Assembly: GCA_964459465.1 (NCBI GenBank)
Contig: CAYWLR010000001.1
Span: 35,866 to 99,865, forward strand
DNA: 64,000 nt
From: an uncultured Ignavibacteriaceae bacterium
GTDB taxonomy: Bacteria; Zixibacteria; MSB-5A5; GN15; PGXB01
Reading direction: 5' to 3'
In this document: one piece after another, positions 2-15,033 of the stretch
How positions within the stretch are numbered: the stretch's first letter is position 1
Layout: the number at the start of each line of letters is the position of its first letter
The notes under the pieces: generated by a model
What the model was told of the DNA's origin: nothing
What the model saw: only the letters and a program-made list of their open reading frames with translations
Database searches by the model: none
Translations under genes and position numbers: made by a program

Positions 2-1069
2 CTGATGGGCATCCTTTTGCTCTCACCGTTTACATACCGGCCATTGCGATACACTCTTTTTCTGTTTATACCGCTGTCGGCCATTGGCGCCAGCGCCGTT
101 GCGATGCTGTTTGGGAAATTGCGGGTTTCTCCGGAGAAAATCCTTCTCACGACGCCGGTTGTCTTTATAATCATCCTGTATCTTACCATGCAGATAAAAA
201 TGACTACCGTTCCCGGCGGTCAGGCACTTGCCGCGGCGGAACGCTTTTTATTCCCGGGCATCCTGATAGCCATGGGCGCGACCGCCGTCTTGTTGTTGGC
301 CCTGTACAAATTCCCCGATCGATACAAATCGATAATAATATCGGCTATTACCATTGTCTTGCTGGCGGCGACCATTATTTTTCAGGGACGGCTGATCTAT
401 CGCGGCCTGTCCGAACCGGGACCGTATCTTCGCGATATCGGCCGGGAAGTGGCGCAAATTACCGGACCCGAAGCCGTTCTGACGGGGCCTTATGCTCCGG
501 CCTTCACCATCGATAACAACCTGAAGGCGGTAATTTATGTTTTCGGTCTGCCCGACGTCGAACACGACCTGTTCGATAAATTCCCCATCACCCATCTGGC
601 CGCCGATTACAGCAACTGGCAGGCGGCACTCCGGACGCATCCCTTCCTTGCCGATGCCTTGCGGCTCAATCGCTTTCGCGTCCGCGATGGCACCGTCGAT
701 TTGTACCGCGTTCCTAAAGCGAATACGCCGTTGACCGACTTCGAGCGCTTTGTCCGGGATTTCGAGGCGAAAATTTATGATTCCGTTTTGCACTATAACA
801 CGGAATTTTGTGAAGCCCACCAGGATAATCTGGCAGGGCAGTTTAACTTAATCATTAACCACCTTACCTTCGGCAAAACGGAGCACGCCCTGAAAGGGCT
901 GGAAACACTGGCGGCTTTATATCCCGATAATTATCGTGCCACCGCCTTTGCGTCCCAATGCTATAAAGTCCTCGCCGGGCAGTTGAACAAACCGGAATAT
1001 GACACGTTAGGCGAATCCTTTTTCGAGCGATCCCAAAAAATTAATCCGAGCCTGAAACGGGTCCGGTAA
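2..1069 (+). CDS. Polytopic membrane protein with C-terminal soluble and TPR-like region; 5' end cut by the window edge (GT-C-like layout)
   Basis: The frame is open to the left edge. Several hydrophobic helices are followed by a soluble domain and a helical repeat (YPDNYRATAFASQCYKVL). The layout matches CDS 55651-57519. Confidence 0.6.
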   Translation: MMGILLLSPFTYRPLRYTLFLFIPLSAIGASAVAMLFGKLRVSPEKILLTTPVVFIIILYLTMQIKMTTVPGGQALAAAERFLFPGILIAMGATAVLLLALYKFPDRYKSIIISAITIVLLAATIIFQGRLIYRGLSEPGPYLRDIGREVAQITGPEAVLTGPYAPAFTIDNNLKAVIYVFGLPDVEHDLFDKFPITHLAADYSNWQAALRTHPFLADALRLNRFRVRDGTVDLYRVPKANTPLTDFERFVRDFEAKIYDSVLHYNTEFCEAHQDNLAGQFNLIINHLTFGKTEHALKGLETLAALYPDNYRATAFASQCYKVLAGQLNKPEYDTLGESFFERSQKINPSLKRVR

Positions 1070-4197: not shown

Positions 4198-5619
4198 TTA
4201 TTGGGGACAGTCAAGCGCCGGGCCATTATCATAGATAAACGATATCATGGCCAGAATATCGAGCAGGTTCAAATCACCGCTGTTATTAACGTCGGCCGCC
4301 TCCGGTATCGCCGGCGATGGCCCCTGACCATAAATATCATCGATTAAAAATAATATATCGAGCAGATTGACATTGCCATCGCTGTTGGCGTCACCGCATA
4401 AAAAACCGCAGACCGGGGCGACCCCGTCGGGGACAATTTTAAAAACTTCGCCGTCGAACAGGTCGCATATGTACAGTTCCCCATGGGCGTCTTCACCGAA
4501 GGAAACAATGCCGCCGACGTCCAGGCCGCCGCCGGGAGCAAGTTCGGCACTGCGTTCGGCATACTCCGTTACGGTTATTCCGTCATATAGAAAAGTCCAG
4601 ATATTACCCGAACAGTAATCGGCAAAGAAATAGGTCCCCTGAAGGTCGGGGATGGCGCACCCGCGATAAACATAGCCGCCGGTCACGGAGCATCCCAGGC
4701 TATGGCTGTATTCAGTGACCGGAAATTGATAGGCCGACGGCGCAGAACAATCGGTAGTATTGTATTCGTGGTTGCCTTCATAGCAGCGCCAGCCGTAATT
4801 TATACCGCCCGGACCAGAGGCCGGTTCATAGTCAATTTCTTCCCAATCCCCCTGACCGACGTCTCCGATATACATGTCGCCGGTGGCTCGGTCGAAACTG
4901 TAACGCCAGGGATTGCGCAAGCCTTTGGCCCAGATTTCACCCAGAACCGAGGGTGAACCACTAAACGGGTTATCGGGCGGTATGGTATAGGGATTGCCGC
5001 CGTCAACGTCGATCCTTAGAATTTTGCCCAGCAGGGTGTTGTCGGACTGGGCGCGGTCGCCGGGGTCGCCGCCGGAGCCGCCATCGCCCAGACTGATATA
5101 CAAATAGCCATCGTTGGGCCCGAACGCCAGCATGCCGCCGTTATGGTTGGAAAAGGGCTGATCGACGAAAAGGATATTGAATTCGCTGGAGACGTCGGCG
5201 CTGTCCGGGTCGGATGAGACACGGAAGCGCGATACGCGGGTATCGCCGTTATTGTCCGTGTAGTTAACATAGAAATAGCCGTTGGATGAATATTGCGGGT
5301 GAAAAGCCAGCCCCAGAAGACCCTGCTCGTTGCCGATGGAACGAACTATCGCCGAAACATCAAGAAATGGCCGGGATAACACCGTCCCGCCTTTGAGAAT
5401 TTTAATGCGGCCGTCCTGTTCGACGATAAAAAGCCGCTCGGTATCGCCGGGGGCGGCGCAGACGAAAACCGGGCGGGTCAGACCGTCGGCCACGCGAATT
5501 GTCGTAAGAGGCGTGGCGTTGGGTGCGGCCGAAAGACAGGTCGCCAAAAGGACGACAAATACAAACATGAGAAAACCCGCCTTTGCCGCAGTATGGGCCC
5601 GATGGAATTTTTCAGCCAT
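4198..5619 (-). CDS. PQQ-dependent sugar dehydrogenase-like (SGDH beta-propeller) secreted protein with C-terminal dockerin-like module
   Basis: LLGLAFHP, NHNGGMLAFGP.DGYLYISLGDGGSGGDP and GLRNPWR motifs of soluble glucose/sorbosone dehydrogenases. N-terminal signal peptide and a C-terminal twin dockerin-like repeat. Confidence 0.85.
   Translation of the reverse strand: MAEKFHRAHTAAKAGFLMFVFVVLLATCLSAAPNATPLTTIRVADGLTRPVFVCAAPGDTERLFIVEQDGRIKILKGGTVLSRPFLDVSAIVRSIGNEQGLLGLAFHPQYSSNGYFYVNYTDNNGDTRVSRFRVSSDPDSADVSSEFNILFVDQPFSNHNGGMLAFGPNDGYLYISLGDGGSGGDPGDRAQSDNTLLGKILRIDVDGGNPYTIPPDNPFSGSPSVLGEIWAKGLRNPWRYSFDRATGDMYIGDVGQGDWEEIDYEPASGPGGINYGWRCYEGNHEYNTTDCSAPSAYQFPVTEYSHSLGCSVTGGYVYRGCAIPDLQGTYFFADYCSGNIWTFLYDGITVTEYAERSAELAPGGGLDVGGIVSFGEDAHGELYICDLFDGEVFKIVPDGVAPVCGFLCGDANSDGNVNLLDILFLIDDIYGQGPSPAIPEAADVNNSGDLNLLDILAMISFIYDNGPALDCPQ
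4201..4398 (-). other. Dockerin-like twin EF-hand module (C-terminal)
   Basis: CGDANSDGNVNLLDILFLIDDIYGQGPSPAIPEAADVNNSGDLNLLDILAMISFIYDNGPALDCPQ. Confidence 0.8.
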
Positions 5620-5721: not shown

Positions 5722-5753
5722 AAAAAAACCCGGGGCCCTCCGGGCTCCGGGTT
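5722..5753 (-). terminator. Intrinsic terminator after CDS 5774-7372 (minus strand)
   Basis: GC-rich hairpin ACCCGG...CCGGGT (5728-5753) followed on the minus strand by a 7-nt U-run (plus-strand A-run 5722-5728). Confidence 0.6.
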
Positions 5754-5773: not shown

Positions 5774-7372
5774 TTATTTCAAAACCACCATTTTCTTTTT
5801 GGCGACATTGTCACCGGCGGCCAATCGATAAAAATATACCCCACTGGCCACCGTGCGCCCGTCACCGTCATCACCGTTCCAGTCGACACTGTGATAACCC
5901 GGTTGCATGGGCTGATCGAGCAGAGTGGTCACCTTCTGCCCCAGGATATTGAAAACATCAAGTCGTACATGAGCTTCAATGGGCAAATCGAACCTGATGG
6001 TCGTGGTCGGATTGAAAGGATTAGGATAATTCTGGTGCAGGGCGAAGCTTTTTGGCAATAGCTCGCCCAGCTGGCCGGTAAGGTAGGCCTCGGTTCCGAT
6101 GACGATTTGAGCGCTTTTTATTTCGTTTTTCAGTATAATTTCGCCGCCGTTAACCGGTGAAATATGGTTTTCATCGTCGAAAATCAGCCACGCCTGCATA
6201 CCGTCGGGAATCTGATCCAGACCGGCAATTTTCAGGACCCGGTTTTCGCCGCCTGAAAATATCAGATTCCAGGTCGCACCGTCGATAAAAGGCGCCCGGT
6301 AATCGGCGGTGAAGGCCGGTTTTTCATCCTTAACCCGAAGCGCCAGCATGGGCATGCCCGGCGCCGCCGGTGGCTTGAGCATATCGGTTTGATCAAATCC
6401 CGGTTGCGCGGCATGGCGCACTCCGATATAACCGTTATCCACCCCGGAACCATCCGTCAACGTCAGACTTATCGTCCAGTCATATTCCGAAGATGCGGCC
6501 AATATATCATTCTGCCTTTGCGGCGGGGCCTTGGTTACCGGAATATAGGGGAAGACCGGCTTTACGCCCGCTGTGGTAACATAGACAAAGAAGCCTTCCC
6601 AGGCCGGGATAACAGCGCTATGGTCCCAGGTTCCGTTATTATAATAATAGTGGTTTCCGCCCTGCACGACACCGCTCAAAGCGCCCTGAATCGTGCCGCC
6701 GGACTGGTAGAGTATTTGGCTGAACAAAATGTTAAAATCAAAAGGATTGGCCAGTTGATTCCAGCCAAGAGCCAACGTCAATTCCGGCGAATCCGAAATA
6801 TAATAATCGTGTCCGGCATGATTCGTATTGGGCGTTACCGCAAAGCCAGTGGCATCGATAGTCTTCGAGCCGCGCGCAATCAGCCAGTAGCCGATACCGG
6901 GGACAAATTCAGGAATTGTGCCGGATCCTCCGTATTCATAAGTGGCGTCATCGCCATTATCATAACGCCCAAACCGCCACTGTTTGATATTGTAGGCTCC
7001 GAGGTCATCGACCAGAACGGTATTGGCGTCGTTGCCGCCTATTACATGCACGGGAACTCCGATAATTTTATATGCGGCATCCGGCAGGGCAGTCGGTTTT
7101 TGAAAACTGGTTGCTTCGAGCCTGAAGGCGCTGGCAATGACGCCGCCCTTGCCGATGTAGCTTGTCGATGCCGACAATCCCATCGGCCCGCCGCCGATCG
7201 TTCCGACCACTTTGGAAGCCGCCGCTGTGCTGATGCCGCCGCCGCCAACATAATGCAGAGGCCAGACTTTGTAATCGTCGCTTAGCGGCGGTTGAGTCTG
7301 TGCGGAAGCCGAGGCAGTCAGCAGGCAGGCGAGCGCGGCCAATAAATATACACCGTATTTTATTGGTCTCAT
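5774..7372 (-). CDS. Secreted protein of unknown function with a T9SS type-A C-terminal sorting domain
   Basis: Start chosen at MRPIKYGVYLLAALACLLTASASAQ (signal peptide), 1 nt after the upstream stop. The C-terminus LHQNYPNPFNPTTTIRFDLP...VFNILGQKV...GVYFYRL... is the classic Por secretion tail pattern. Confidence 0.8.
   Translation of the reverse strand: MRPIKYGVYLLAALACLLTASASAQTQPPLSDDYKVWPLHYVGGGGISTAAASKVVGTIGGGPMGLSASTSYIGKGGVIASAFRLEATSFQKPTALPDAAYKIIGVPVHVIGGNDANTVLVDDLGAYNIKQWRFGRYDNGDDATYEYGGSGTIPEFVPGIGYWLIARGSKTIDATGFAVTPNTNHAGHDYYISDSPELTLALGWNQLANPFDFNILFSQILYQSGGTIQGALSGVVQGGNHYYYNNGTWDHSAVIPAWEGFFVYVTTAGVKPVFPYIPVTKAPPQRQNDILAASSEYDWTISLTLTDGSGVDNGYIGVRHAAQPGFDQTDMLKPPAAPGMPMLALRVKDEKPAFTADYRAPFIDGATWNLIFSGGENRVLKIAGLDQIPDGMQAWLIFDDENHISPVNGGEIILKNEIKSAQIVIGTEAYLTGQLGELLPKSFALHQNYPNPFNPTTTIRFDLPIEAHVRLDVFNILGQKVTTLLDQPMQPGYHSVDWNGDDGDGRTVASGVYFYRLAAGDNVAKKKMVVLK
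5777..6046 (-). other. T9SS C-terminal sorting domain (type A)
   Basis: NYPNPFNP-TTI-F-LP ... V-I-D-LG--V ... G-Y-Y-L pattern read directly from the translation. Confidence 0.8.
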
Positions 7373-7373
7373 A

Positions 7374-8495
7374 CTATTCCTCCTGCATATTCTGCTTGGC
7401 TTCAAGAAGCTCTCTTTGCGCCTTTTCAGCTTCAAGCTGGGCCTTAATTGCTTTTAATTCCAATTCTCTTAAATCGACCTCATAAGCTGTGATTGGTTGC
7501 TGGTTTGGGTTAGCCGGATCAAAGGGTATCTCAACCACGCGCGCACTTTGAAAATCATCGGGATTTATGTCAGGTTCAATTGTTGAGATGGTACCATAGC
7601 TTGATGGCAAATAAATAAGAACTAATTTGGGATAATAAACATAAGCGTTTCCACCGGTCCAGCCGCGATTTGCATTCAAGTAATATGTTTGTGTTCCGGC
7701 CGATGCCACCGAGAATATTCGTTGTGCAACCATGGATCCCCATTGATAGACACCACTGGCCAGCGTTATATCCGCTCCGCCGAATGCCGTAAAATGTTGG
7801 CTTCCAGGTGTCGTCGTGGCCAATGCTTCTATACCTAGAATAATATTACCGAAGGCATTGCCGGTCGCCAAACCTCCGATTGCACCATACGCAAAGCCCA
7901 TGGCCAAAACATATCCGGCGGCTGGGGCATTAATGGAAGCAGACAAAATATTGGTAACACCCGTATTGGCGACCGTCACTCCTGATGTAACTCTCGTTTG
8001 AACAAGGCCCGATTCGTCAAGCATCTTCGCGGCGGTTATTGTGGCATCGGCAATATCGGCCGCAACAATAGTGCCGTTAACAATTTTGGCCGAGGTAATG
8101 CTATTATCAGGTACCGTTGTGGCCGTATTGGCGTATTCCGATGAGTAGGCATAAGGCGCGGATGTAATCAGTTGCCGCGGGGCAAGGGTTTGACCGCCGA
8201 CGACCATTTCCATATATAATTTCGGGCCGTCAAAATAGGTTCTGTTCATACTTGTCAGTTCCGTCGTAAAAATACCGTTGGCATCGGGAGATACGTTAAC
8301 TGTCCACGTTTGAACCGGTGAACCACCCGACAAAGCTTCATAAACTCGAAATGTGACACTGGTGGTATTCACTATCGGGTCCCCGCCCGCCGTGGTCAAG
8401 CGACCCTGATAGACAAATGAATTCGGCGCCTGGGCCATTGCCGTTACGGCCAGCACCAGCATCAAAATCGACGTAATAACAATTCCTTTTTTCAT
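7374..8495 (-). CDS. Secreted fibre-like protein with C-terminal coiled coil
   Basis: Start at MKKGIVITSILMLVLAVTAMAQA, preceded by AAGGA. The N-terminus FVYQGRLTTAGGDPI..TFRVY resembles tail-fibre-like surface proteins. It also has repeated ITSAKIV.GTIVAADIADATITAAKM segments and a heptad-like tail LELKAIKAQLEAEKAQRELLEAKQ. Confidence 0.7.
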   Translation of the reverse strand: MKKGIVITSILMLVLAVTAMAQAPNSFVYQGRLTTAGGDPIVNTTSVTFRVYEALSGGSPVQTWTVNVSPDANGIFTTELTSMNRTYFDGPKLYMEMVVGGQTLAPRQLITSAPYAYSSEYANTATTVPDNSITSAKIVNGTIVAADIADATITAAKMLDESGLVQTRVTSGVTVANTGVTNILSASINAPAAGYVLAMGFAYGAIGGLATGNAFGNIILGIEALATTTPGSQHFTAFGGADITLASGVYQWGSMVAQRIFSVASAGTQTYYLNANRGWTGGNAYVYYPKLVLIYLPSSYGTISTIEPDINPDDFQSARVVEIPFDPANPNQQPITAYEVDLRELELKAIKAQLEAEKAQRELLEAKQNMQEE

Positions 8496-8543
8496 CTTAC
8501 ATATCCTTTTAATCAGGTTAATCCTCAAGTTTATCAATTCAGT

Positions 8544-9251
8544 TTACTTGCCGCTGGGGGGATCGGGAATGCCGGGCAAATCGGCTGTTCCACCGCCGTC
8601 ATCGCCGCCACCGCCGCCGAGAGCCACCGCCGCGACCGCAATCAAACCGACCCCTCCGGCAATAGCCCACCAGTTGGAATACCAGGCTTTCTTCTTCTTT
8701 TCTTCAGTCTTTTTTGGCGGAATAGTAGCTACGGCCGGCTTTTTTTCTTCCGGTTTGGGCTGTTCAACCACGACCGGTATCGGCTCGGTTGGAGCGGGTT
8801 CTTCGACCGTCGCTTCCTCGGCCGCTTCGCTGTCGACCCGTTCCTTGGCGCTTTCCATCAAATCCAGAAACTCCCCGGACTTGATATCCAGCTCGCCGCG
8901 CCATTCGCGATAGGCTTTGAAGGCCTTGACGAATTCTTCAGTCACCCTGTCGCGCTTTTCGGTGTCGTTTTTGAGCATGGCATAATACACTGAAGCCATC
9001 AGGACGTGCGCGTTGGCCTTGTCTTCGATACTTACGTCTGCCCTGGCCAGATAGGCGTTCAGTTCTTCTTCGGCGCATTTGTAGTTGAGCATCTTGAAGC
9101 TGGTGCGGGCATGCTCAACCGAAGGTTTATTCGGGTCGAAATCGCAGCCTCCGGACTGGGCAAAAACTAATGACGGCAGCATTGTCCATTGCAAAAAAGC
9201 CGTCAGAACGGTCACCGCGACTACCCGAAAAAGAAGGTTTTTTTGTTTCAT
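8544..9251 (-). CDS. Exported helical (TPR-like) protein with Pro/Glu/Lys-rich linker and C-terminal membrane anchor
   Basis: Signal peptide, helical domain, linker EPAPTEPIPVVVEQPKPEEKKPAVATIPPKKTEEKKKK, then TM WWAIAGGVGLIAVAAVALGG and a Gly/Asp tail. GGGAGG SD upstream. Confidence 0.7.
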   Translation of the reverse strand: MKQKNLLFRVVAVTVLTAFLQWTMLPSLVFAQSGGCDFDPNKPSVEHARTSFKMLNYKCAEEELNAYLARADVSIEDKANAHVLMASVYYAMLKNDTEKRDRVTEEFVKAFKAYREWRGELDIKSGEFLDLMESAKERVDSEAAEEATVEEPAPTEPIPVVVEQPKPEEKKPAVATIPPKKTEEKKKKAWYSNWWAIAGGVGLIAVAAVALGGGGGDDGGGTADLPGIPDPPSGK

Positions 9252-9287
9252 GCAACCTCCCTGGGTTATGAAGTTAGTTTGAGAAGT

Positions 9288-10961
9288 TTACTTTTCGGAC
9301 CAGAATATAATCAGGGGAACCGAGGTTCCTCCCTCTTTGGCTATTCTGGCAAAATCCATTTTACCCGATGCGCCCTTGATTACCAGATGCGGGCCGCCGC
9401 CGTAGGGGAAAGTCACGCAGGAGTCGATCTTGTGGGCGTTCGCCTTCGCGCCGGTCGGATAAAGGCTGACGCCAACCTCCCATTCGCCGGCGGCTCGTTT
9501 TAGGCCGAAGGCCGGGAAGCTGGTGAAATTGCGCGAGCGCCCGTTCAGCGAAAATTCCAGAGTTTTGCCGTCGGCCGAGGGGAACAGGGCCAGTTGAAAA
9601 TCAAGCAGGGCGGTTTCGGCAAAGGCATCATCGAGGTTTAAAGTCACTATATTTGTATCTTCGGTCAGATTAACGCGTTTACGATATATCGGGTAATCCC
9701 GATGAGTTACTTCGAAATCATGCTGTCCCCGGCTCGTGATGACATACTCGTTCTGGGGCTTAATCAAGCCATCGACTCTCAAGACCGCGTTTTCGCCGGG
9801 CGCTATCAGCGCCTTAAAGACCGGGCGCGGGGGAGGGGTCGGTTCGACGCGCGGCTTGGGTTCTTCCACTTTGGCGGCGACATCGACCGGTTTGACAGCC
9901 GGTTTGGGCGGAGTCGCCTCCTTTTTTATTTCGGCGGCGATGACGCTCGTGTCTGGGGCGGTTATATCGGATTTGGCCGGAGCAACAGCTTCTTTGGTAG
10001 TCGAGATTTCAGCGGGTCGATTGAATAATTCGATAATCTTATCTTTGGCAAAAAAGCCGACTACGCCTAGGACCGCAACCGCTATTACCGGAACCAGCCA
10101 TTTGGCTTTGGTCGGTTTGGCATAGACGGTGCGTAACTCCATCAGATCCTGGTGCAGAGCCTTGACCGAGGCATAACGCATTTGGGGGTCAGGATGGGTC
10201 GCTCTTTTAAGGATTTTAATCAGGTCGTTGGACAATCCCTCGACACTCATGCCGCCCCATTCCCGGATGCTGGGATTGGCCGGGTTACGATACGGCATGC
10301 TGTTGGTGACAAAATTAAATAAAGTTACTCCGAGTTCATAAACGTCGCTTAAGAACGGGTCATATTTGGCGTCACCGGTCTGGCGTTCGGGGGCGGCGAA
10401 TTGCGGGGTAAGCGCCTGGTATGCGGTGCGGGTAGCGGCTTCGCCCACTTCCTTGGCGATACCGAAGTCAATCAGGTAGATATGGCCGTTTTTATCGATA
10501 AGAATATTGCCCGGTTTAATATCGCGATGGGCAACACGCTGGCTGTGGGCGAATTCCAGCGCTCCGGTCAAATCGCGGGCCAGGCGCAAAAAATCGGCTT
10601 CACCCAGCGGCCCGGATTCCCGAAGCACCTGCGCCCCGTCTTTGCCGTCGATAAACGGCACTACCAGAGCCCCTTCTTCGGGCAAAAAATCAATAACGCG
10701 GCAGATATGCGGGTGGTCCAGAAGGCACAGGATTTTGGCTTCCTTGGCGAATTTATCGCGGGATTGGACGCGCTTGAAAAATTTTATGACCAGCCTTTGT
10801 TCCGGCAGATTGATATTGAAACCTTCGTAAACCTCGCCGAATCCGCCGCCACCGATATGCTTGGTGACCTTGTACTTGCCACCGATTTGCCAGCCGATAA
10901 TCCCCAGCGGGTCACGGTTGTTGTCGTTTAAATCGGATTGCTCAAACGTATCGTCGTTCAA
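9288..10961 (-). CDS. Hanks-type Ser/Thr protein kinase with one TM helix and an extracytoplasmic PEGA-like domain
   Basis: GGGGFGEVY..VIK, HRDIKPGNILID, DFGIAKE and APE motifs. TM helix WLVPVIAVAVLGVVGFF, a Pro-rich spacer and APGENAVLRVDG (PEGA-like). TTG start with GGAAAGG SD. Confidence 0.9.
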   Translation of the reverse strand: MNDDTFEQSDLNDNNRDPLGIIGWQIGGKYKVTKHIGGGGFGEVYEGFNINLPEQRLVIKFFKRVQSRDKFAKEAKILCLLDHPHICRVIDFLPEEGALVVPFIDGKDGAQVLRESGPLGEADFLRLARDLTGALEFAHSQRVAHRDIKPGNILIDKNGHIYLIDFGIAKEVGEAATRTAYQALTPQFAAPERQTGDAKYDPFLSDVYELGVTLFNFVTNSMPYRNPANPSIREWGGMSVEGLSNDLIKILKRATHPDPQMRYASVKALHQDLMELRTVYAKPTKAKWLVPVIAVAVLGVVGFFAKDKIIELFNRPAEISTTKEAVAPAKSDITAPDTSVIAAEIKKEATPPKPAVKPVDVAAKVEEPKPRVEPTPPPRPVFKALIAPGENAVLRVDGLIKPQNEYVITSRGQHDFEVTHRDYPIYRKRVNLTEDTNIVTLNLDDAFAETALLDFQLALFPSADGKTLEFSLNGRSRNFTSFPAFGLKRAAGEWEVGVSLYPTGAKANAHKIDSCVTFPYGGGPHLVIKGASGKMDFARIAKEGGTSVPLIIFWSEK

Positions 10962-11152
10962 TGATCAACCTTTCCGGTCTATGCAATTATAAAGGGCATT
11001 GCAGTAATTCCGAATTTCGCGCTGTGTTCAATTGTCCTGTGATATTTGGTCCATCCCTTTTTTACCAAAACCGCCTTTGGATACCTCCCTTTAAAGTCGG
11101 TTGATTATTATATTCTGCGCGACAGGCTTTGTCAATGTTAAACAAAATCAAA

Positions 11153-11174
11153 AGGCGGGTCTTTCGACCCGCCT
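11153..11174 (-). terminator. Intrinsic terminator after CDS 11213-12484
   Basis: AGGCGGGTC-tttc-GACCCGCCT hairpin, followed by a T-rich tract on the minus strand. Confidence 0.6.
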
Positions 11175-11212
11175 TTAATGTGAATAAAAAATCGAGATTT
11201 TCAGGTTTTCAC

Positions 11213-12484
11213 CTAAAAAGTCATCTTCCGGCTGTCGAGCAATACCGTCGGTTCTTCGCCATACAATTCAAGAAAATATGTGCCCGGTGCTACGGCGGCC
11301 ACGACCGCCTGAATTTCAAAATAACACATGCAATAAACATACCGGTTGGAAACGTTGAATTCAAAAAAGCGCAGGGTGTCGTTGGATTGGCTGATAGCTA
11401 CCACCAGATCCGCCGCACAATTAAACCAGGCGTCATAGTGGGTCATGGTCAGAACACCGTTATCGTAAATATATTCGACATTCGCGGCAAGCTTGTCCGG
11501 GGTTTTCTCGAGACAGCCGCTGTCGTCAAAACTTTGCAACCAGCCTTCTCCTCCGACCGTAATCTCGCCGGAATAAATTTCCTCGCCATAGATATCGAGC
11601 ACCCGCAGTATATATGAGCCTTCCTCAAGACCATAAAGCGTCGACTTGAGATTGAAATAGCAAATACAATCGGCGGGCATACCGGTATCGGCTTCGGCGG
11701 CGATAATCAGACCATCCATTACCGTATAATCGACCACATAGGCCAGGCCGCAGTTGTAGAAGGCATTTATGTGATAAATGGTCAAATCATGACCGACCAC
11801 CTGAACAAAAACGGAATCATCGTCCGATGAATCTTTTGTCCAGGCGCAGTCCGATTGCTCTTCCGAATGTTGAGGAACCGTCCCGCCGACCACGATGGCC
11901 GTGTCAATCCCGACCGTCTGGCCCTGAAGCCCGATCAGAATAACGACATAAGTGCCCGGCATCATGTCATAGATGATCGACTCCAGGTTGAAATAACACA
12001 GGCAGTCGCATTCGGGAATAGTGTCAAGCTGCTTGACAATAATCGTGTCGTTGTTAATGCTGTTGGTGGTGGCATAACCCAGACAGCAGTCATAATAGGC
12101 GCTGTCGTGGTGAACGTGAATGTCGAAGCCGATCACTTCGACATACATGGTGTCGTCGGCGTAATCTTTTCCTTCAAGACACCCGCTGTGGTAGTTGTCG
12201 CACGGCAGGCCGCACCATAAATCGCCGCGCCCGTCATACAAATTCGCGATCAGCCTTAATATGTCGAGCAGGTTGATGTCGCCATCGTTGTTGACGTCGG
12301 CCATTTCCTCATTAATCAGCATGCCATTGGGAATATATATGTTTTCAATAATGGCCAGGATGTCCAGCAGGTTGACACCGCCGTCCCGGTTGGCATCGCC
12401 GCAAATGTAATTGGGTTGAGAGGAGTACGAGGTGAGGGGAAGGGCAATCAGAATTGCCGCCAAAAGAAAAAAGAACTTTTTCAT
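11213..12484 (-). CDS. Secreted protein: N-terminal dockerin-like module plus three tandem Cys-rich repeats (unknown family)
   Basis: Signal peptide, dockerin-like module at aa 28-91, then three repeats with an exact 111-aa period. Each repeat has H-x2-A-[YFW]-[YF]-[ND]-C and C-x-C-Y-F motifs. Confidence 0.8.
   Translation of the reverse strand: MKKFFFLLAAILIALPLTSYSSQPNYICGDANRDGGVNLLDILAIIENIYIPNGMLINEEMADVNNDGDINLLDILRLIANLYDGRGDLWCGLPCDNYHSGCLEGKDYADDTMYVEVIGFDIHVHHDSAYYDCCLGYATTNSINNDTIIVKQLDTIPECDCLCYFNLESIIYDMMPGTYVVILIGLQGQTVGIDTAIVVGGTVPQHSEEQSDCAWTKDSSDDDSVFVQVVGHDLTIYHINAFYNCGLAYVVDYTVMDGLIIAAEADTGMPADCICYFNLKSTLYGLEEGSYILRVLDIYGEEIYSGEITVGGEGWLQSFDDSGCLEKTPDKLAANVEYIYDNGVLTMTHYDAWFNCAADLVVAISQSNDTLRFFEFNVSNRYVYCMCYFEIQAVVAAVAPGTYFLELYGEEPTVLLDSRKMTF
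11216..12181 (-). repeat. Three in-frame tandem protein repeats (about 11849-12181, 11516-11848 and 11216-11515)
   Basis: The repeat-initial Cys residues C102, C213 and C324 are spaced exactly 111 aa apart. Conserved blocks: VEVIGFDIHVHHDSAYYDCC / VQVVGHDLTIYHINAFYNCG / NGVLTMTHYDAWFNCA, and CDCLCYFNL / CICYFNL / CMCYFEI. Confidence 0.75.
12212..12403 (-). other. Dockerin-like twin EF-hand module (N-terminal position)
   Basis: CGDANRDGGVNLLDILAIIENIYIPNGMLINEEMADVNNDGDINLLDILRLIANLYDGRGDLWC. Confidence 0.8.
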
Positions 12485-12679
12485 GATCCCTCCTTGGGAT
12501 ATCCATAAAATTATCGCGCCCGATAATTTGGCGGAGATAGATATAATGGGCGACCTTTTTATCTACTATAAATGTACCGGGTTAACGTGAATCTGTCAAG
12601 TTTTTAATCGCCCAATCAGGACAATACCAATCCCGAATCATTCAAAGGTGCAAAGAAACACCTTAGGTGCATAGCATAA

Positions 12680-12699
12680 AGGGAGGCAGAAACCTCCCT
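12680..12699 (-). terminator. Hairpin terminator after CDS 12722-14752
   Basis: AGGGAGG-cagaaa-CCTCCCT flanked by T/A runs on both sides. Confidence 0.5.
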
Positions 12700-12721
12700 T
12701 TATTTATCTTATTCTATCAAC

Positions 12722-14752
12722 TTATGGACAAACGGGGTCGGGGCCGGGCGGGACACCATAAATGTTGTCAATCAGGTATAAAATATCCAGAAGATTGATA
12801 TCGCCGTCATTATTCATATCGCCCGCCTGCATCACCGGATACGGCTGCGGCCCGTCGCTGTACAAAAAGGCAATCAGGTACAGAATATCGATAAGATTCT
12901 TAAACCCGTCGCCATTGGCGTCGCCGCACATGTACTCACAGGCATCGCCGATACCGTCACCATCGCCGTCTTCCTGCAATGGATTATAATTGAACGGGCA
13001 GTTATCGTCGATGTCGAGTATCCCGTCGTCATCGTCATCATCGTCACAAACGTCGCCCAGCAGGTCGCCATCGTTGTCGGCTTGGTTGGGGTTATAGTCG
13101 TTCGGGCAGTTATCGCAGGCGTCGCCGATCCCGTCGCCGTCAACATCAGCCTGTGACGGATTGGCCAGTCCGGGGCAATTGTCCACGTCGTTGCAGATAC
13201 CGTCGCCGTCGGGGTCGTTTTCGGGATCATTGGGGCACAGATCACAGACATTGCCGATGCCGTCACCGTCGCTGTCGAGCTGATCGACGTTGGCATCGTT
13301 CGGGCAATTATCACAGACGTTGCCGACACCGTCACCGTCGGCGTCAGCCTGATCGGCATTAGGCATATCGGGGCAGTTGTCACAGGCATCGGACAGCCCG
13401 TCTCCGTCACTGTCGGCCGGCTCCAGATATTCGAGCGCGATTTCGTTTTCGGTCGTCCCGTCGACCTGATAGGCCGCTTTTTGGCCGCCGTTGGCGATGG
13501 CAGAATTGCGGTACTCGGAAAGTACGGATTCATGGAATTGCGACACCTGGATTGCTTCCGACCAGGTAACACCGGCGTTGCAGGTATAGGCTGCATACAG
13601 GGCGTCGCCTTTCGTAAACGTGCAGACATATTCCGCTCCGCCGACATGGGCGAGCCGGGGGTGGCATTCGGCTTCAGATGTGGCGGCGACAATCGAGAAA
13701 CCCTCAAAATCGGTGAAGGCCGGATTAGTGGTGTACCAACAGATAATATCGGTGTCGGTCGGATCCGATGCATTATACGCCGAGCCAACCACCAATATGG
13801 TGCTGTCGTAGGCGGCGATATCCGGCTCGACTATGTTCATATCGGGGTCGGTGAAGGCCTTGACGAAATACACGCCGTCTTCGGTCCAGTCCCCGAAATT
13901 ATGATTTAAAGCAAACAGCTCCCATTGATCGGTGGCATCATTGTAGCGGTCATAGACCGAAAGCGCCCATCCGGCGACACGATCGATTGTGGCGGCGGTC
14001 GTGGCACAACCCTCATAGTCTTTATACCAGCTTATATAGGTATAGCCGGTGCTGTTGATTTGATAGAATATTATCGGAATATCATCATAAACCGACGGCG
14101 GCGCATTACGGCTGATGACCGCCGAAATAAAACCCCAGTTCCAGGATTGCTGGCCGTCATCGGAAGCGATGTCGGTCATTTTCATATTATAAAATCCGGA
14201 TTCCGTCCAGACGGCATAACTTCCACTCCACGTCGTGGGCGTGGTCGGGTCGGGGAAACGAAGCAGAACAAAGGTCCCGCCGCCGCCCCATGACAGCGGG
14301 GGCAGGAAAGTCCCGTTCATATAAGACCCATAGCCGCGCCAGTCAACGGACGGGTATTTGGCGCCGGCCAGATCGTGATAACAGCACGTTGACCAGTTGG
14401 CGCCGTTATCGGTCGAATAATGCCAGAATACATAGCCGGGATAAACCCCGTCAGTATATTCGTAGCCAAAAATAACAGTGTCGTTGAAGGCGTCGCCCAG
14501 GGCGGGATGGTATCTGCCGGGAGCAGATGGCTTTTTATTCTCCCATGACGGGAAAAATTCCTGTGGCATGTCGATCAGGGGAGAAGGCGATTGCAATCGC
14601 TCTTCAACCAGTGGCGGCTTGGAAGAATGGCTTTCAAAATTATAACTTTTGGCATCCGGGATTTCGCGATCAATTAAAGTTAAATCGTCGGCCATGATGT
14701 TAATCGATAAAAGCAACAGACCGGCAAGCAAAATAACGGTATGGCGGGTCAT
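12722..14752 (-). CDS. Secreted BNR/Asp-box-containing protein with thrombospondin type-3 repeats and C-terminal dockerin-like module
   Basis: Signal peptide, Asp-box STDNGANW, about seven D-x-D-G-D-G-x-x-D-x-C-D-N-C-P repeats and a C-terminal twin dockerin-like repeat. Confidence 0.85.
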   Translation of the reverse strand: MTRHTVILLAGLLLLSINIMADDLTLIDREIPDAKSYNFESHSSKPPLVEERLQSPSPLIDMPQEFFPSWENKKPSAPGRYHPALGDAFNDTVIFGYEYTDGVYPGYVFWHYSTDNGANWSTCCYHDLAGAKYPSVDWRGYGSYMNGTFLPPLSWGGGGTFVLLRFPDPTTPTTWSGSYAVWTESGFYNMKMTDIASDDGQQSWNWGFISAVISRNAPPSVYDDIPIIFYQINSTGYTYISWYKDYEGCATTAATIDRVAGWALSVYDRYNDATDQWELFALNHNFGDWTEDGVYFVKAFTDPDMNIVEPDIAAYDSTILVVGSAYNASDPTDTDIICWYTTNPAFTDFEGFSIVAATSEAECHPRLAHVGGAEYVCTFTKGDALYAAYTCNAGVTWSEAIQVSQFHESVLSEYRNSAIANGGQKAAYQVDGTTENEIALEYLEPADSDGDGLSDACDNCPDMPNADQADADGDGVGNVCDNCPNDANVDQLDSDGDGIGNVCDLCPNDPENDPDGDGICNDVDNCPGLANPSQADVDGDGIGDACDNCPNDYNPNQADNDGDLLGDVCDDDDDDDGILDIDDNCPFNYNPLQEDGDGDGIGDACEYMCGDANGDGFKNLIDILYLIAFLYSDGPQPYPVMQAGDMNNDGDINLLDILYLIDNIYGVPPGPDPVCP
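12725..12928 (-). other. Dockerin-like twin EF-hand module (C-terminal)
   Basis: CGDANGDGFKNLIDILYLIAFLYSDGPQPYPVMQAGDMNNDGDINLLDILYLIDNIYGVPPGPDPVCP. Confidence 0.8.
12945..13410 (-). repeat. Coding tandem repeats: about 7 thrombospondin type-3-like Ca-binding repeats
   Basis: DSDGDGLSDACDNCP / DADGDGVGNVCDNCP / DSDGDGIGNVCDLCP / DPDGDGICNDVDNCP / DVDGDGIGDACDNCP / DNDGDLLGDVCD..DNCP / DGDGDGIGDACE. Confidence 0.8.
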
Positions 14753-14932
14753 AAGGAAACCTCCGTGTATAAGGGCCTTGTCGCAAAACCATGATGACAG
14801 GCAATTATGCGATACATTTATAAGATAAGATTTGGAGCCGGGCTGTCAACGATAATGATTGAAGACTTTGCTGATCGAGTCAATCATAAAAAGCCCGAAG
14901 GCATATTGTGACAATGGATTATAAATTTTTTA

Positions 14933-14960
14933 TTGACAATGCCGAATATGAAGATATATT
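14933..14960 (+). promoter_or_regulatory. Possible sigma70-type promoter TTGACA-N16-TATATT
   Basis: ttgaca at 14933-14938 and tatatt at 14955-14960, about 75 nt upstream of the small ORF. Confidence 0.35.
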
Positions 14961-15033
14961 TGCAACATATTTAAGGCCAAACCGTATATTAGAAAAATGC
15001 TGATTTAACCCTTAACCGACGCGAGGAAGTTTA

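Follow-up and report, generated by a model that had tools for sequence, protein, structure and literature searches.

The window analysed here is a stretch of 64,000 nucleotides from an uncultured Ignavibacteriaceae bacterium that GTDB places in the Zixibacteria, as do the source names of homologues (assembly GCA_964459465.1, contig CAYWLR010000001.1, positions 35,866 to 99,865 of the forward strand). At 5774-10961 of this window, four minus-strand open reading frames (ORFs) lie in the order kinase-PEK-fibre-T9N and encode a Hanks-type membrane kinase, a membrane-anchored protein with a Pro/Glu/Lys spacer (PEK), a secreted fibre and a protein tagged for the type IX secretion system (T9SS), which we call T9N. 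Genome comparisons show that the four predicted genes form one tight, widely conserved and chromosomally inherited unit, of which the fibre is the mobile part, with a head that DNA alignment shows to have been exchanged through recombination. The genes and the putative transcription signals around them are as follows.

9288..10961, minus strand: Hanks-type Ser/Thr membrane kinase, 557 aa, TTG start (Pkinase match)
8544..9251, minus strand: PEK protein, 235 aa (ORF and orthologue alignment)
7374..8495, minus strand: secreted fibre resembling mosaic adhesive trimer (MAT) fibres, 373 aa from the ATG giving MKKGIV... (ORF)
5774..7372, minus strand: T9N, 532 aa from the ATG giving MRPIKY... (ORF)
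11107..11135, minus strand: promoter-like site of the sigma-70 type (exact TTGACA-17-TATAAT)
11176..11151, minus strand: terminator-like hairpin of the upstream gene (hairpin scan)
5725..5748, minus strand: intrinsic terminator-like hairpin at the end of the operon (9 pairs, 5 of them G-C, then seven T)

The intergenic gaps of 36, 48 and 1 nt, re-derived from the ORF coordinates, have the same values as in a first-pass annotation of this DNA, which had also placed a terminator only past the last gene. That placement agrees with our scan, as the two strongest terminator-like hairpins on the minus strand are those at 5748..5725 and 11176..11151 and matches within the four genes are weak only; the total of 17 terminator-like matches is not clearly in excess of the 10.2 +/- 4.0 found in shuffled sequence. 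The promoter-like site lies ~146 nt 5' of the kinase start and directly past the terminator of the upstream gene, and we infer that the four genes are co-transcribed. Coupled translation of the fibre and T9N is plausible because the stop of the former is 1 nt from the start of the latter and the Shine-Dalgarno sequence of T9N falls within the final fibre codons (junction AGGAGGAAtagtATG).

Conservation of the operon and its variants

The first-pass annotation had pointed to a survey of the gene neighbourhood as a check on the operon, and the four genes proved to be syntenic in many relatives. Judged wherever contigs permit, the order kinase-PEK-fibre-T9N occurs in 16 loci of families f1 and f4 and in six further loci of f3, f4 and f7 (G122, G075, G072, G117, G148 and G132). 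In all, at least 25 loci of four Zixibacteria families show this order. A deeply diverged copy of the whole operon is present on a JGI metagenome contig (L049), where T9N is 29% identical, the PEK-like protein and the fibre are recovered by hhalign (98.7% and 99.8%, respectively) and the kinase has Pfam PEGA matches. Among 40 relatives, PEK, the kinase ectodomain and T9N were detected in 22-23 of 24 genomes of f1 and four of five of f4, and in none of f2 (0/5) or f3 (0/6) save for one weak T9N match. These profiles of detected homologues show that the three occur jointly or not at all. Phylum-wide, PEK was found in 52 of 201 genomes (f1, 19/20; f4, 11/12; f3, 17/73; f7, 4/12) and in none of the remaining sampled families of this set. 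The fibre family is present in all 40 relatives, often in multiple copies and tandem arrays, and as a single copy in the window genome. Distance matrices likewise show that the kinase domain, PEK and T9N, which are mutually correlated (r = 0.66-0.84), have what reads as one history, with the fibre apart: its N-domain correlates with these three at r = 0.08-0.30, highest with T9N.

Partial gene sets identify T9N as the apparent hub of the unit, because fibre plus T9N without the kinase and kinase plus PEK plus T9N without the fibre both exist. In L045 and L046, a fibre gene stands directly 5' of a T9N homologue (28-31% identity) without a kinase or PEK; the N-domains of these fibres are recognized by hhalign (99%) and one of the fibres is of the S74 type. 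Conversely, kinase, PEK and T9N occur without a fibre gene in G043, G129 and G088 and in a second, rearranged module of G036 and G039, and T9N in these fibre-less sets has a length of 969-1504 aa. Four such long T9N proteins were scanned: one carries N-terminal FG-GAP repeats and Big_5, another an InlB-type repeat, and the extensions of the other two match no Pfam family. The FG-GAP, Big_5 and InlB-type extensions are adhesin-type passengers fused to T9N. The ~350-aa T9N module with its C-terminal sorting domain (CTD) thus behaves as a C-terminal pedestal whose distal end is either a fused passenger or a separate fibre.

The second module, which is diverged, is found at L033 (G039:C48, 2470-9695) and L034 (G036:C83, 2914-10125), in genomes that also have the main operon, and its order is T9N-kinase-PEK. 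Its T9SS protein of ~1500 aa consists of Big_5, 11 FG-GAP repeats, the T9N module and the CTD, with no fibre gene; the kinase has the same ectodomain and the PEK-like protein a duplicated helical domain. Two f2 loci (L026, G025:C15, 5601-13762; L030, G031:C46, 5141-17726) hold tandem arrays of 5-9 fibre paralogues without kinase, PEK or T9N, interleaved with secreted proteins of ~225-250 aa that end in a dockerin-like tail (...IARIFSGGPAPICG) and may be an alternative fibre partner. At L036 (G008:C1, 5910-10204), fibre and T9N overlap by 4 nt and there is no kinase, the trace of PEK being a 138-aa ORF ending in ...LPPFPPNPER; a divergent upstream gene has a PAAR-domain-like start (MGKPAARIGDQTAHGG...). 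At L046 (1-4618 of a contig of GCA_964464595.1), a TIR-domain gene and a 1044-aa STAND/AAA_16-WD40 gene lie 5' of the S74-fibre/T9N pair; they look like a defence-type pair and probably have no link to the fibre. The distant T9N neighbour L048 was not judged, as its upstream gene crosses the contig end, and the region 3' of the fibre is masked in G009.

The fibre and replacement of its head

The fibre begins with a signal peptide, and its export signal is of the Sec type only. The following domains were delimited.

Residues 23-118, 8142-8429, minus strand: conserved, beta-rich N-domain (alignment, AlphaFold2)
Residues 119-160, 8016-8141, minus strand: tail-fibre-type repeats (repeat analysis)
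Residues 161-305, 7581-8015, minus strand: TNF/C1q-like jelly-roll head (Foldseek)
Residues 342-372, 7380-7472, minus strand: C-terminal helix (AlphaFold2)
Fibre residues ~155-373 and the first nine T9N codons, 7345..8032, minus strand: replaced cassette (DNA alignment to G003)

A tail-fibre-like N-terminal part and imperfect I-x-[ST]-A-K-I repeats had been noted at the outset. Both were borne out: the repeats are 10-11 residues long and of the I-x-S/T-A-K-I type, PHROG tail-fibre families match residues 123-188 and the repeat region of 19 of 34 members of the fibre family, and the C-terminal coiled coil of the first-pass annotation corresponds to the helix at 342-372. The AlphaFold2 (AF2) model, a monomer with a mean predicted local distance difference test (pLDDT) of 81, consists of a confident beta N-domain (26-110), a low-confidence repeat linker, a beta-sandwich head (163-300) and this helix. 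Foldseek matched the head to trimeric TNF/C1q-like folds, namely the N-terminal lectin domain of BC2L-C (TMt 0.68), the C-domain of Chlamydia Pgp3, the receptor-binding protein of lactococcal phage 1358 and many phage and giant-virus fibre heads of the C1q type. No informative match was obtained when the PDB was searched with the fibre alignment as a profile.

The sole match of the fibre in curated libraries is NCBIfam NF053851 (Bdello_MAT_N), which models the N-domain of the MAT fibres of Bdellovibrio bacteriovorus; it scores 27.1 bits (E 3e-6), the cut-off being 60. This match spans fibre residues 12-53 and positions 3-44 of the 162 in the profile, that is, its first quarter, and recurs in 33 of 34 family members (best E 3.8e-10). 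MAT fibres were described only in 2024; they are intertwined trimers displayed on the cell surface, all 21 in Bdellovibrio have a conserved, beta-rich N-domain of ~130 aa after the signal peptide, their tips (S74, TNF-like, C-type lectin or new sandwich domains) have been swapped in evolution, and the surface element bound by the N-domain is stated as unknown (PMC10769870). The window fibre shows the variable C-terminal tip expected of such fibres, which is TNF/C1q-like and replaced between relatives. This architecture and tip behaviour support a predicted identity of the fibre as a short relative of the Bdellovibrio MAT fibres, but its N-domain score is below the cut-off.

Replacement of the head is evident from comparison with the closest genome, G003. 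The cassette of 688 nt in the window has zero nucleotide similarity to the 689 nt in G003, while its flanks are ~94% (window 8033-15000) and ~93% (5940-7344) identical in DNA. Protein identity to G003 is 97% for the kinase, 97% for PEK, 94% for T9N and 94-96% for flanking genes versus 56% for the whole fibre, in which the N-domain is 99% and the head 29% identical. Comparison with a more distant protein gives discordant values (N-domain 56%, head 49%, tail 63%). From operon to operon, the N-domain is followed by ~80 to 390 residues, and this part frequently has no relation to its counterpart in the window fibre. A diversity-generating retroelement was ruled out as the source of head variation because the head DNA is wholly replaced, without residual similarity. 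As the head is cleanly replaced between near-identical genomes, ligand specificity would turn over quickly in nature. The N-domain tree gathers the 19 fibres linked to operons, without exception, in one group of 22 rows, for which the Shimodaira-Hasegawa-like approximate likelihood ratio test (SH-aLRT) gives a value of 88, which is not strong; copies from the f2 arrays are on the other side, as are the non-operon fragments that remain (35).

In one genome of the same genus (L029, G002:C39, 7097-8259), the operon fibre is split into ORFs of 163 aa (N-domain) and 209 aa (head), which reflects either a frameshifted pseudogene or an assembly error.

T9N and type IX secretion

Residues 88-445: beta-sandwich domains of T9N (model)
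Residues 449-530, 5777-6028, minus strand: type-A T9SS sorting domain (TIGR04183)

T9N starts with a signal peptide followed by a Gly-rich, low-confidence stretch (20-85), and its model has a mean pLDDT of 78. The canonical type-A sorting domain read from the translation at the first pass was confirmed by TIGR04183 (Por_Secre_tail; 35.4 bits versus a cut-off of 23) and PF18962 (28.3 versus 27). The genome also encodes T9SS parts, with PorU (711 bits) and SprA (688 bits) both above cut-off and a PorV-like gene, scoring below cut-off, next to PorU; ~40 other ORFs of the genome match the CTD portion of the PorU profile. The idea of a surface-fibre module with mixed export routes is therefore upheld by the Sec-only signal of the fibre, the type-A CTD of T9N and these T9SS genes. 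Foldseek with T9N returned only generic beta-sandwich arrays (S-layer proteins, Fn domains of C5a peptidase and PorZ), and a profile search of the PDB with the T9N alignment found nothing except a FlgD-like CTD. Profile and structure searches matched neither the fibre nor T9N to a well-characterised unrelated family, a match that the first-pass annotation would have taken as speaking against its reading.

In the genus of the window, T9N lacks ~95 N-terminal residues that are present in most other genera (532 versus ~625 aa). What stands before residue 88 in the window protein is a Gly/Ser-rich remainder of low model confidence.

The kinase and PEK

Residues 30-272, 10146-10874, minus strand: kinase catalytic domain (Pkinase match)
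Residues ~288-305, 10047-10100, minus strand: single transmembrane (TM) helix of the kinase (sequence)
Residues ~306-384, minus strand: Pro/Glu/Lys-rich spacer of the kinase, ~80 residues (sequence)
Residues 385-557, 9291-9809, minus strand: extracytoplasmic domain of the kinase, 173 residues (sequence)

The kinase matches PF00069 (Pkinase) with 135.5 bits, and its catalytic motifs can be read in the translation: GxGxxG (IGGGGFGEV), VIK (VIKFF), HRD (HRDIKPGN), DFG and APE. One TM helix and a Pro-rich spacer stand as first described; the PEGA ectodomain proposed with them is weakly supported, as the hidden Markov model (HMM) for PEGA (PF08308) does not match the window kinase even at E<=10. 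The same HMM gives sub-threshold matches in nine of 17 orthologous ectodomains (best E 0.0052; 14.2 bits versus a cut-off of 20.8 in one orthologous kinase), and the ectodomain profile aligns with the PEGA-bearing region of the distant L049 kinase (hhalign 93.8%, E 1.7e-7), for which reasons we tentatively label the first ~75 ectodomain residues as PEGA-like. The ectodomain would thus combine a diverged PEGA-like module of this length and a conserved domain of ~110 aa, which was assigned to no family and has the consensus SFNGR..W..IDS.VTFPYGGGP...VPLLIFWSE.

The architecture of PEK was read from an alignment of 18 orthologues, in which the exported helical protein with a Pro/Glu/Lys spacer and a C-terminal TM anchor that had been described from the window alone is seen throughout. 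A signal peptide is followed by a helical domain of ~100 aa bearing two invariant Cys, which fits a periplasmic location, and then by a spacer of variable length, the TM helix (KKKK-WY..WWAI), a Gly-rich stretch and a C-terminal LPxFPxPP. The tail past the TM helix (window 8544-8620) has the conserved motif (D/N)T(L/I)PxFPxPP, a possible docking or phosphorylation site for the kinase. PEK has no relative in Pfam, NCBIfam or the PDB (including a profile search of the PDB with the PEK alignment), and its family forms 64 clusters within a collection of 5.8 billion proteins, the named ones all from Zixibacteria.

The Thr of the PEK tail motif is kept in most genera and shifted or lost in the genus of the window.

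Neighbouring genes

Dockerin type I modules are present in the secreted products of all three genes flanking the operon (window 4198-5619, 11213-12484 and 12722-14752), which are a GSDH-type dehydrogenase, a Cys-rich repeat protein and a BNR/TSP3 protein. As these flanking genes are dockerin-tagged and the operon is T9SS-tagged, dockerin-like and T9SS CTD surface-tagging alternate in this neighbourhood. QueG is also encoded in the immediate flanks.

Proposed mechanism and alternatives

We propose an adhesin fibre with a swappable tip that stands on a pedestal displayed by the T9SS and is monitored or controlled by a trans-envelope kinase/PEK pair, a proposal that we regard as evenly poised between right and wrong. 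The T9SS would export T9N and fasten it to the external side of the outer membrane as a pedestal, which would grip the constant N-domain of a separately encoded trimeric fibre; in fibre-less variants it would bear fused adhesin-type domains. We infer docking of the fibre on T9N, and a contact with the constant N-domain rather than the tip would fit, because T9N stays 94% identical despite the head swap. The ligand bound by the variable head would lie outside the cell and would probably be a glycan borne by a particle or a second cell. Kinase and PEK would be anchored in the inner membrane, each with a Pro/Glu/Lys spacer of 60-80 residues crossing the periplasm. TonB spans the periplasm by means of such a spacer, and this likeness would bring the conserved periplasmic domains of the kinase and PEK near the outer membrane, where they could sense the state of the assembly of T9N and fibre, or control it. 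Control of the surface module by the kinase may then take the form of a relay by Ser/Thr phosphorylation of cytoplasmic targets, for which the short cytoplasmic tail of PEK is one candidate.

Several observations weigh against this proposal. None of the four operon genes encodes an FHA protein or a transcription factor (a phosphatase was not searched for); the FHA domains that the first-pass annotation had suggested looking for do occur in the genome, on contigs C20 and C9 beside other kinases, and none is with this operon. The route of the fibre over the outer membrane is left without explanation by a Sec signal only, the T9N fold has no informative structural match beyond a generic beta-sandwich, and the prediction for PEK puts its Lys cluster periplasmic of the TM helix, an uncommon arrangement for such a topology. 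The mirror-tree signal between fibre N-domain and T9N (r 0.30; partial 0.21 when controlling for the kinase domain) is too weak to speak for a direct partnership. Finally, fibres with a like N-domain abound in genomes without T9N, for example in the f2 tandem arrays, and T9N therefore cannot be a universal dock. A narrower version of the proposal, in which T9N is the missing dock of the MAT N-domain and the kinase/PEK circuit reports tip engagement by Ser/Thr phosphorylation, is in our judgement doubtful, though a serious candidate.

The gene set may instead represent two separate units on a shared transcript, with kinase and PEK as a general envelope sensor (cf. the PASTA/PEGA wall monitors) and fibre and T9N as ordinary surface proteins. 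This would account for the existence of fibre and T9N without kinase or PEK, the lack of a kinase substrate among the operon genes, the low correlation of the fibre N-domain with the kinase history (r 0.22) and the presence of ~9 further Hanks kinases in the genome. However, kinase ectodomain, PEK and T9N share presence and absence in the 40 relatives and have correlated distance matrices (r = 0.66-0.84), they are adjacent even in the fibre-less sets and the T9N-kinase-PEK module, and a general wall sensor is not expected to follow one T9SS cargo family through four families; we consider this explanation unlikely. Less probable again is that the same anatomy serves cell-cell recognition for predation or epibiosis, with the kinase triggering an attack or attachment programme. 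MAT fibres recognize prey surface glycans (PMC10769870), and a lectin-like TNF-type head with rapid exchange would fit an arms race, but there is no sign of a predatory lifestyle, the genome has one fibre gene versus 21 in Bdellovibrio and the dockerin-tagged neighbours suggest attachment to polymers or particles.

Two further alternatives start from the phage-like features of the fibre. If T9N were a fibre assembly chaperone of the Tfa/gp38 type, or a tip adhesin, it would help the tip to fold and possibly stay on it; its position directly 3' of a tail-fibre-like gene, with putatively coupled translation, resembles that in phage fibre-chaperone pairs, in which the fibre gene is followed by the chaperone gene. 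Phage chaperones change with the tip, however, whereas here the head has been replaced, the exchange boundary lies merely nine codons into T9N and the rest of T9N is conserved. T9N also serves operons with unrelated fibre C-termini (196-507 aa), occurs without any fibre and bears a T9SS export tag, and such a role is highly improbable. The resemblance of the repeats and the head to phage tail fibres could likewise mean that the fibre is a prophage or tailocin remnant that lies beside cellular genes by chance. Yet no other phage-like gene adjoins it in the window, where the immediate flanks are dockerin-tagged proteins and QueG, and among the genes called in the surroundings of fibre and T9N in L045, L046 and L049 there are no phage structural families. 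A Sec signal peptide with a MAT-type N-domain, a fixed operon place in about 25 syntenic loci of four families and the grouping of 19/19 operon fibres in the N-domain tree (SH-aLRT 88) also contradict this origin, which we find barely credible.

The fixed partnership of the fibre with one T9SS cargo family provides a specific, testable candidate for the MAT dock, and the fused adhesin domains of this cargo family where the fibre gene is missing add to its candidacy. The strict linkage to a Hanks kinase and PEK, if functional, would tie eukaryote-like kinase signalling to a surface adhesin, a combination seldom seen, and would offer the first functional handle on the surface biology of the Zixibacteria, a phylum without cultured members. 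Should both the dock and the circuit hold, diderm bacteria would have a novel type of outside-in signalling from adhesion.

Comparison with known systems

The H1 type VI secretion system (T6SS) of Pseudomonas aeruginosa provides a precedent for the kinase, as in its threonine phosphorylation pathway PpkA, a membrane kinase with a periplasmic sensor, controls the apparatus post-translationally with PppA, Fha1 and TagQRST. The genes studied here likewise group a membrane Hanks kinase, which would sense in the periplasm, with envelope accessories and a putative surface apparatus. The window operon differs in having no FHA substrate or T6SS (a phosphatase was not searched for) and in a kinase ectodomain that is PEGA-like plus a new domain instead of vWA.

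T9SS cargo with a type-A CTD is attached to the cell surface by PorU, following the Porphyromonas and Flavobacterium paradigm, and T9N likewise has a canonical CTD above cut-off in a genome with PorU, SprA and a PorV-like gene. Unlike the usual cargo, its passenger is an undescribed beta-sandwich module of ~350 aa in which neither an enzyme nor a known adhesin domain is present, and its gene is linked to those of a fibre and a kinase. To our knowledge, the established functions of the T9SS do not include displaying a pedestal on which another protein stands, and we found no paper on Zixibacteria and T9SS or type IX secretion.

Phage fibre-chaperone pairs such as Stf-Tfa of lambda and gp37-gp38 of T4 share with the window a tail-fibre-like gene directly before a putatively coupled partner, and mosaic tips. 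T9N departs from Tfa and gp38 in that it does not co-vary with the tip (between the window genome and G003, 94% identity for T9N versus ~30% for the head) and is a 532-aa T9SS cargo that is also found without a fibre.

The first-pass annotation knew of no described system with this composition. The fibre is no orphan, given its likely kinship with MAT; for the four genes together the statement holds, as we found no publication that joins a T9SS pedestal and a PEK-type protein with a MAT-type fibre and a Hanks kinase, and the words 'operon', 'kinase' and 'secretion' are absent from the main text of the MAT paper, which also reports that the fibres bind prey surface glycans (PMC10769870). The nearest relatives would be the non-S74 MATs with TNF-like tips, such as Bd2439 and Bd2734 (Caulton et al. 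2024, PMC10769870), which have the same Sec signal followed by a beta-rich N-domain, a phage tail-fibre-like shaft and an exchangeable C-terminal tip that is swapped between relatives. Unlike these MATs, the window fibre has 373 aa versus ~1000, is present as a single copy versus 21 and belongs to a host that is no known predator, in which its gene has a set operon place along with those of the kinase, PEK and T9N.

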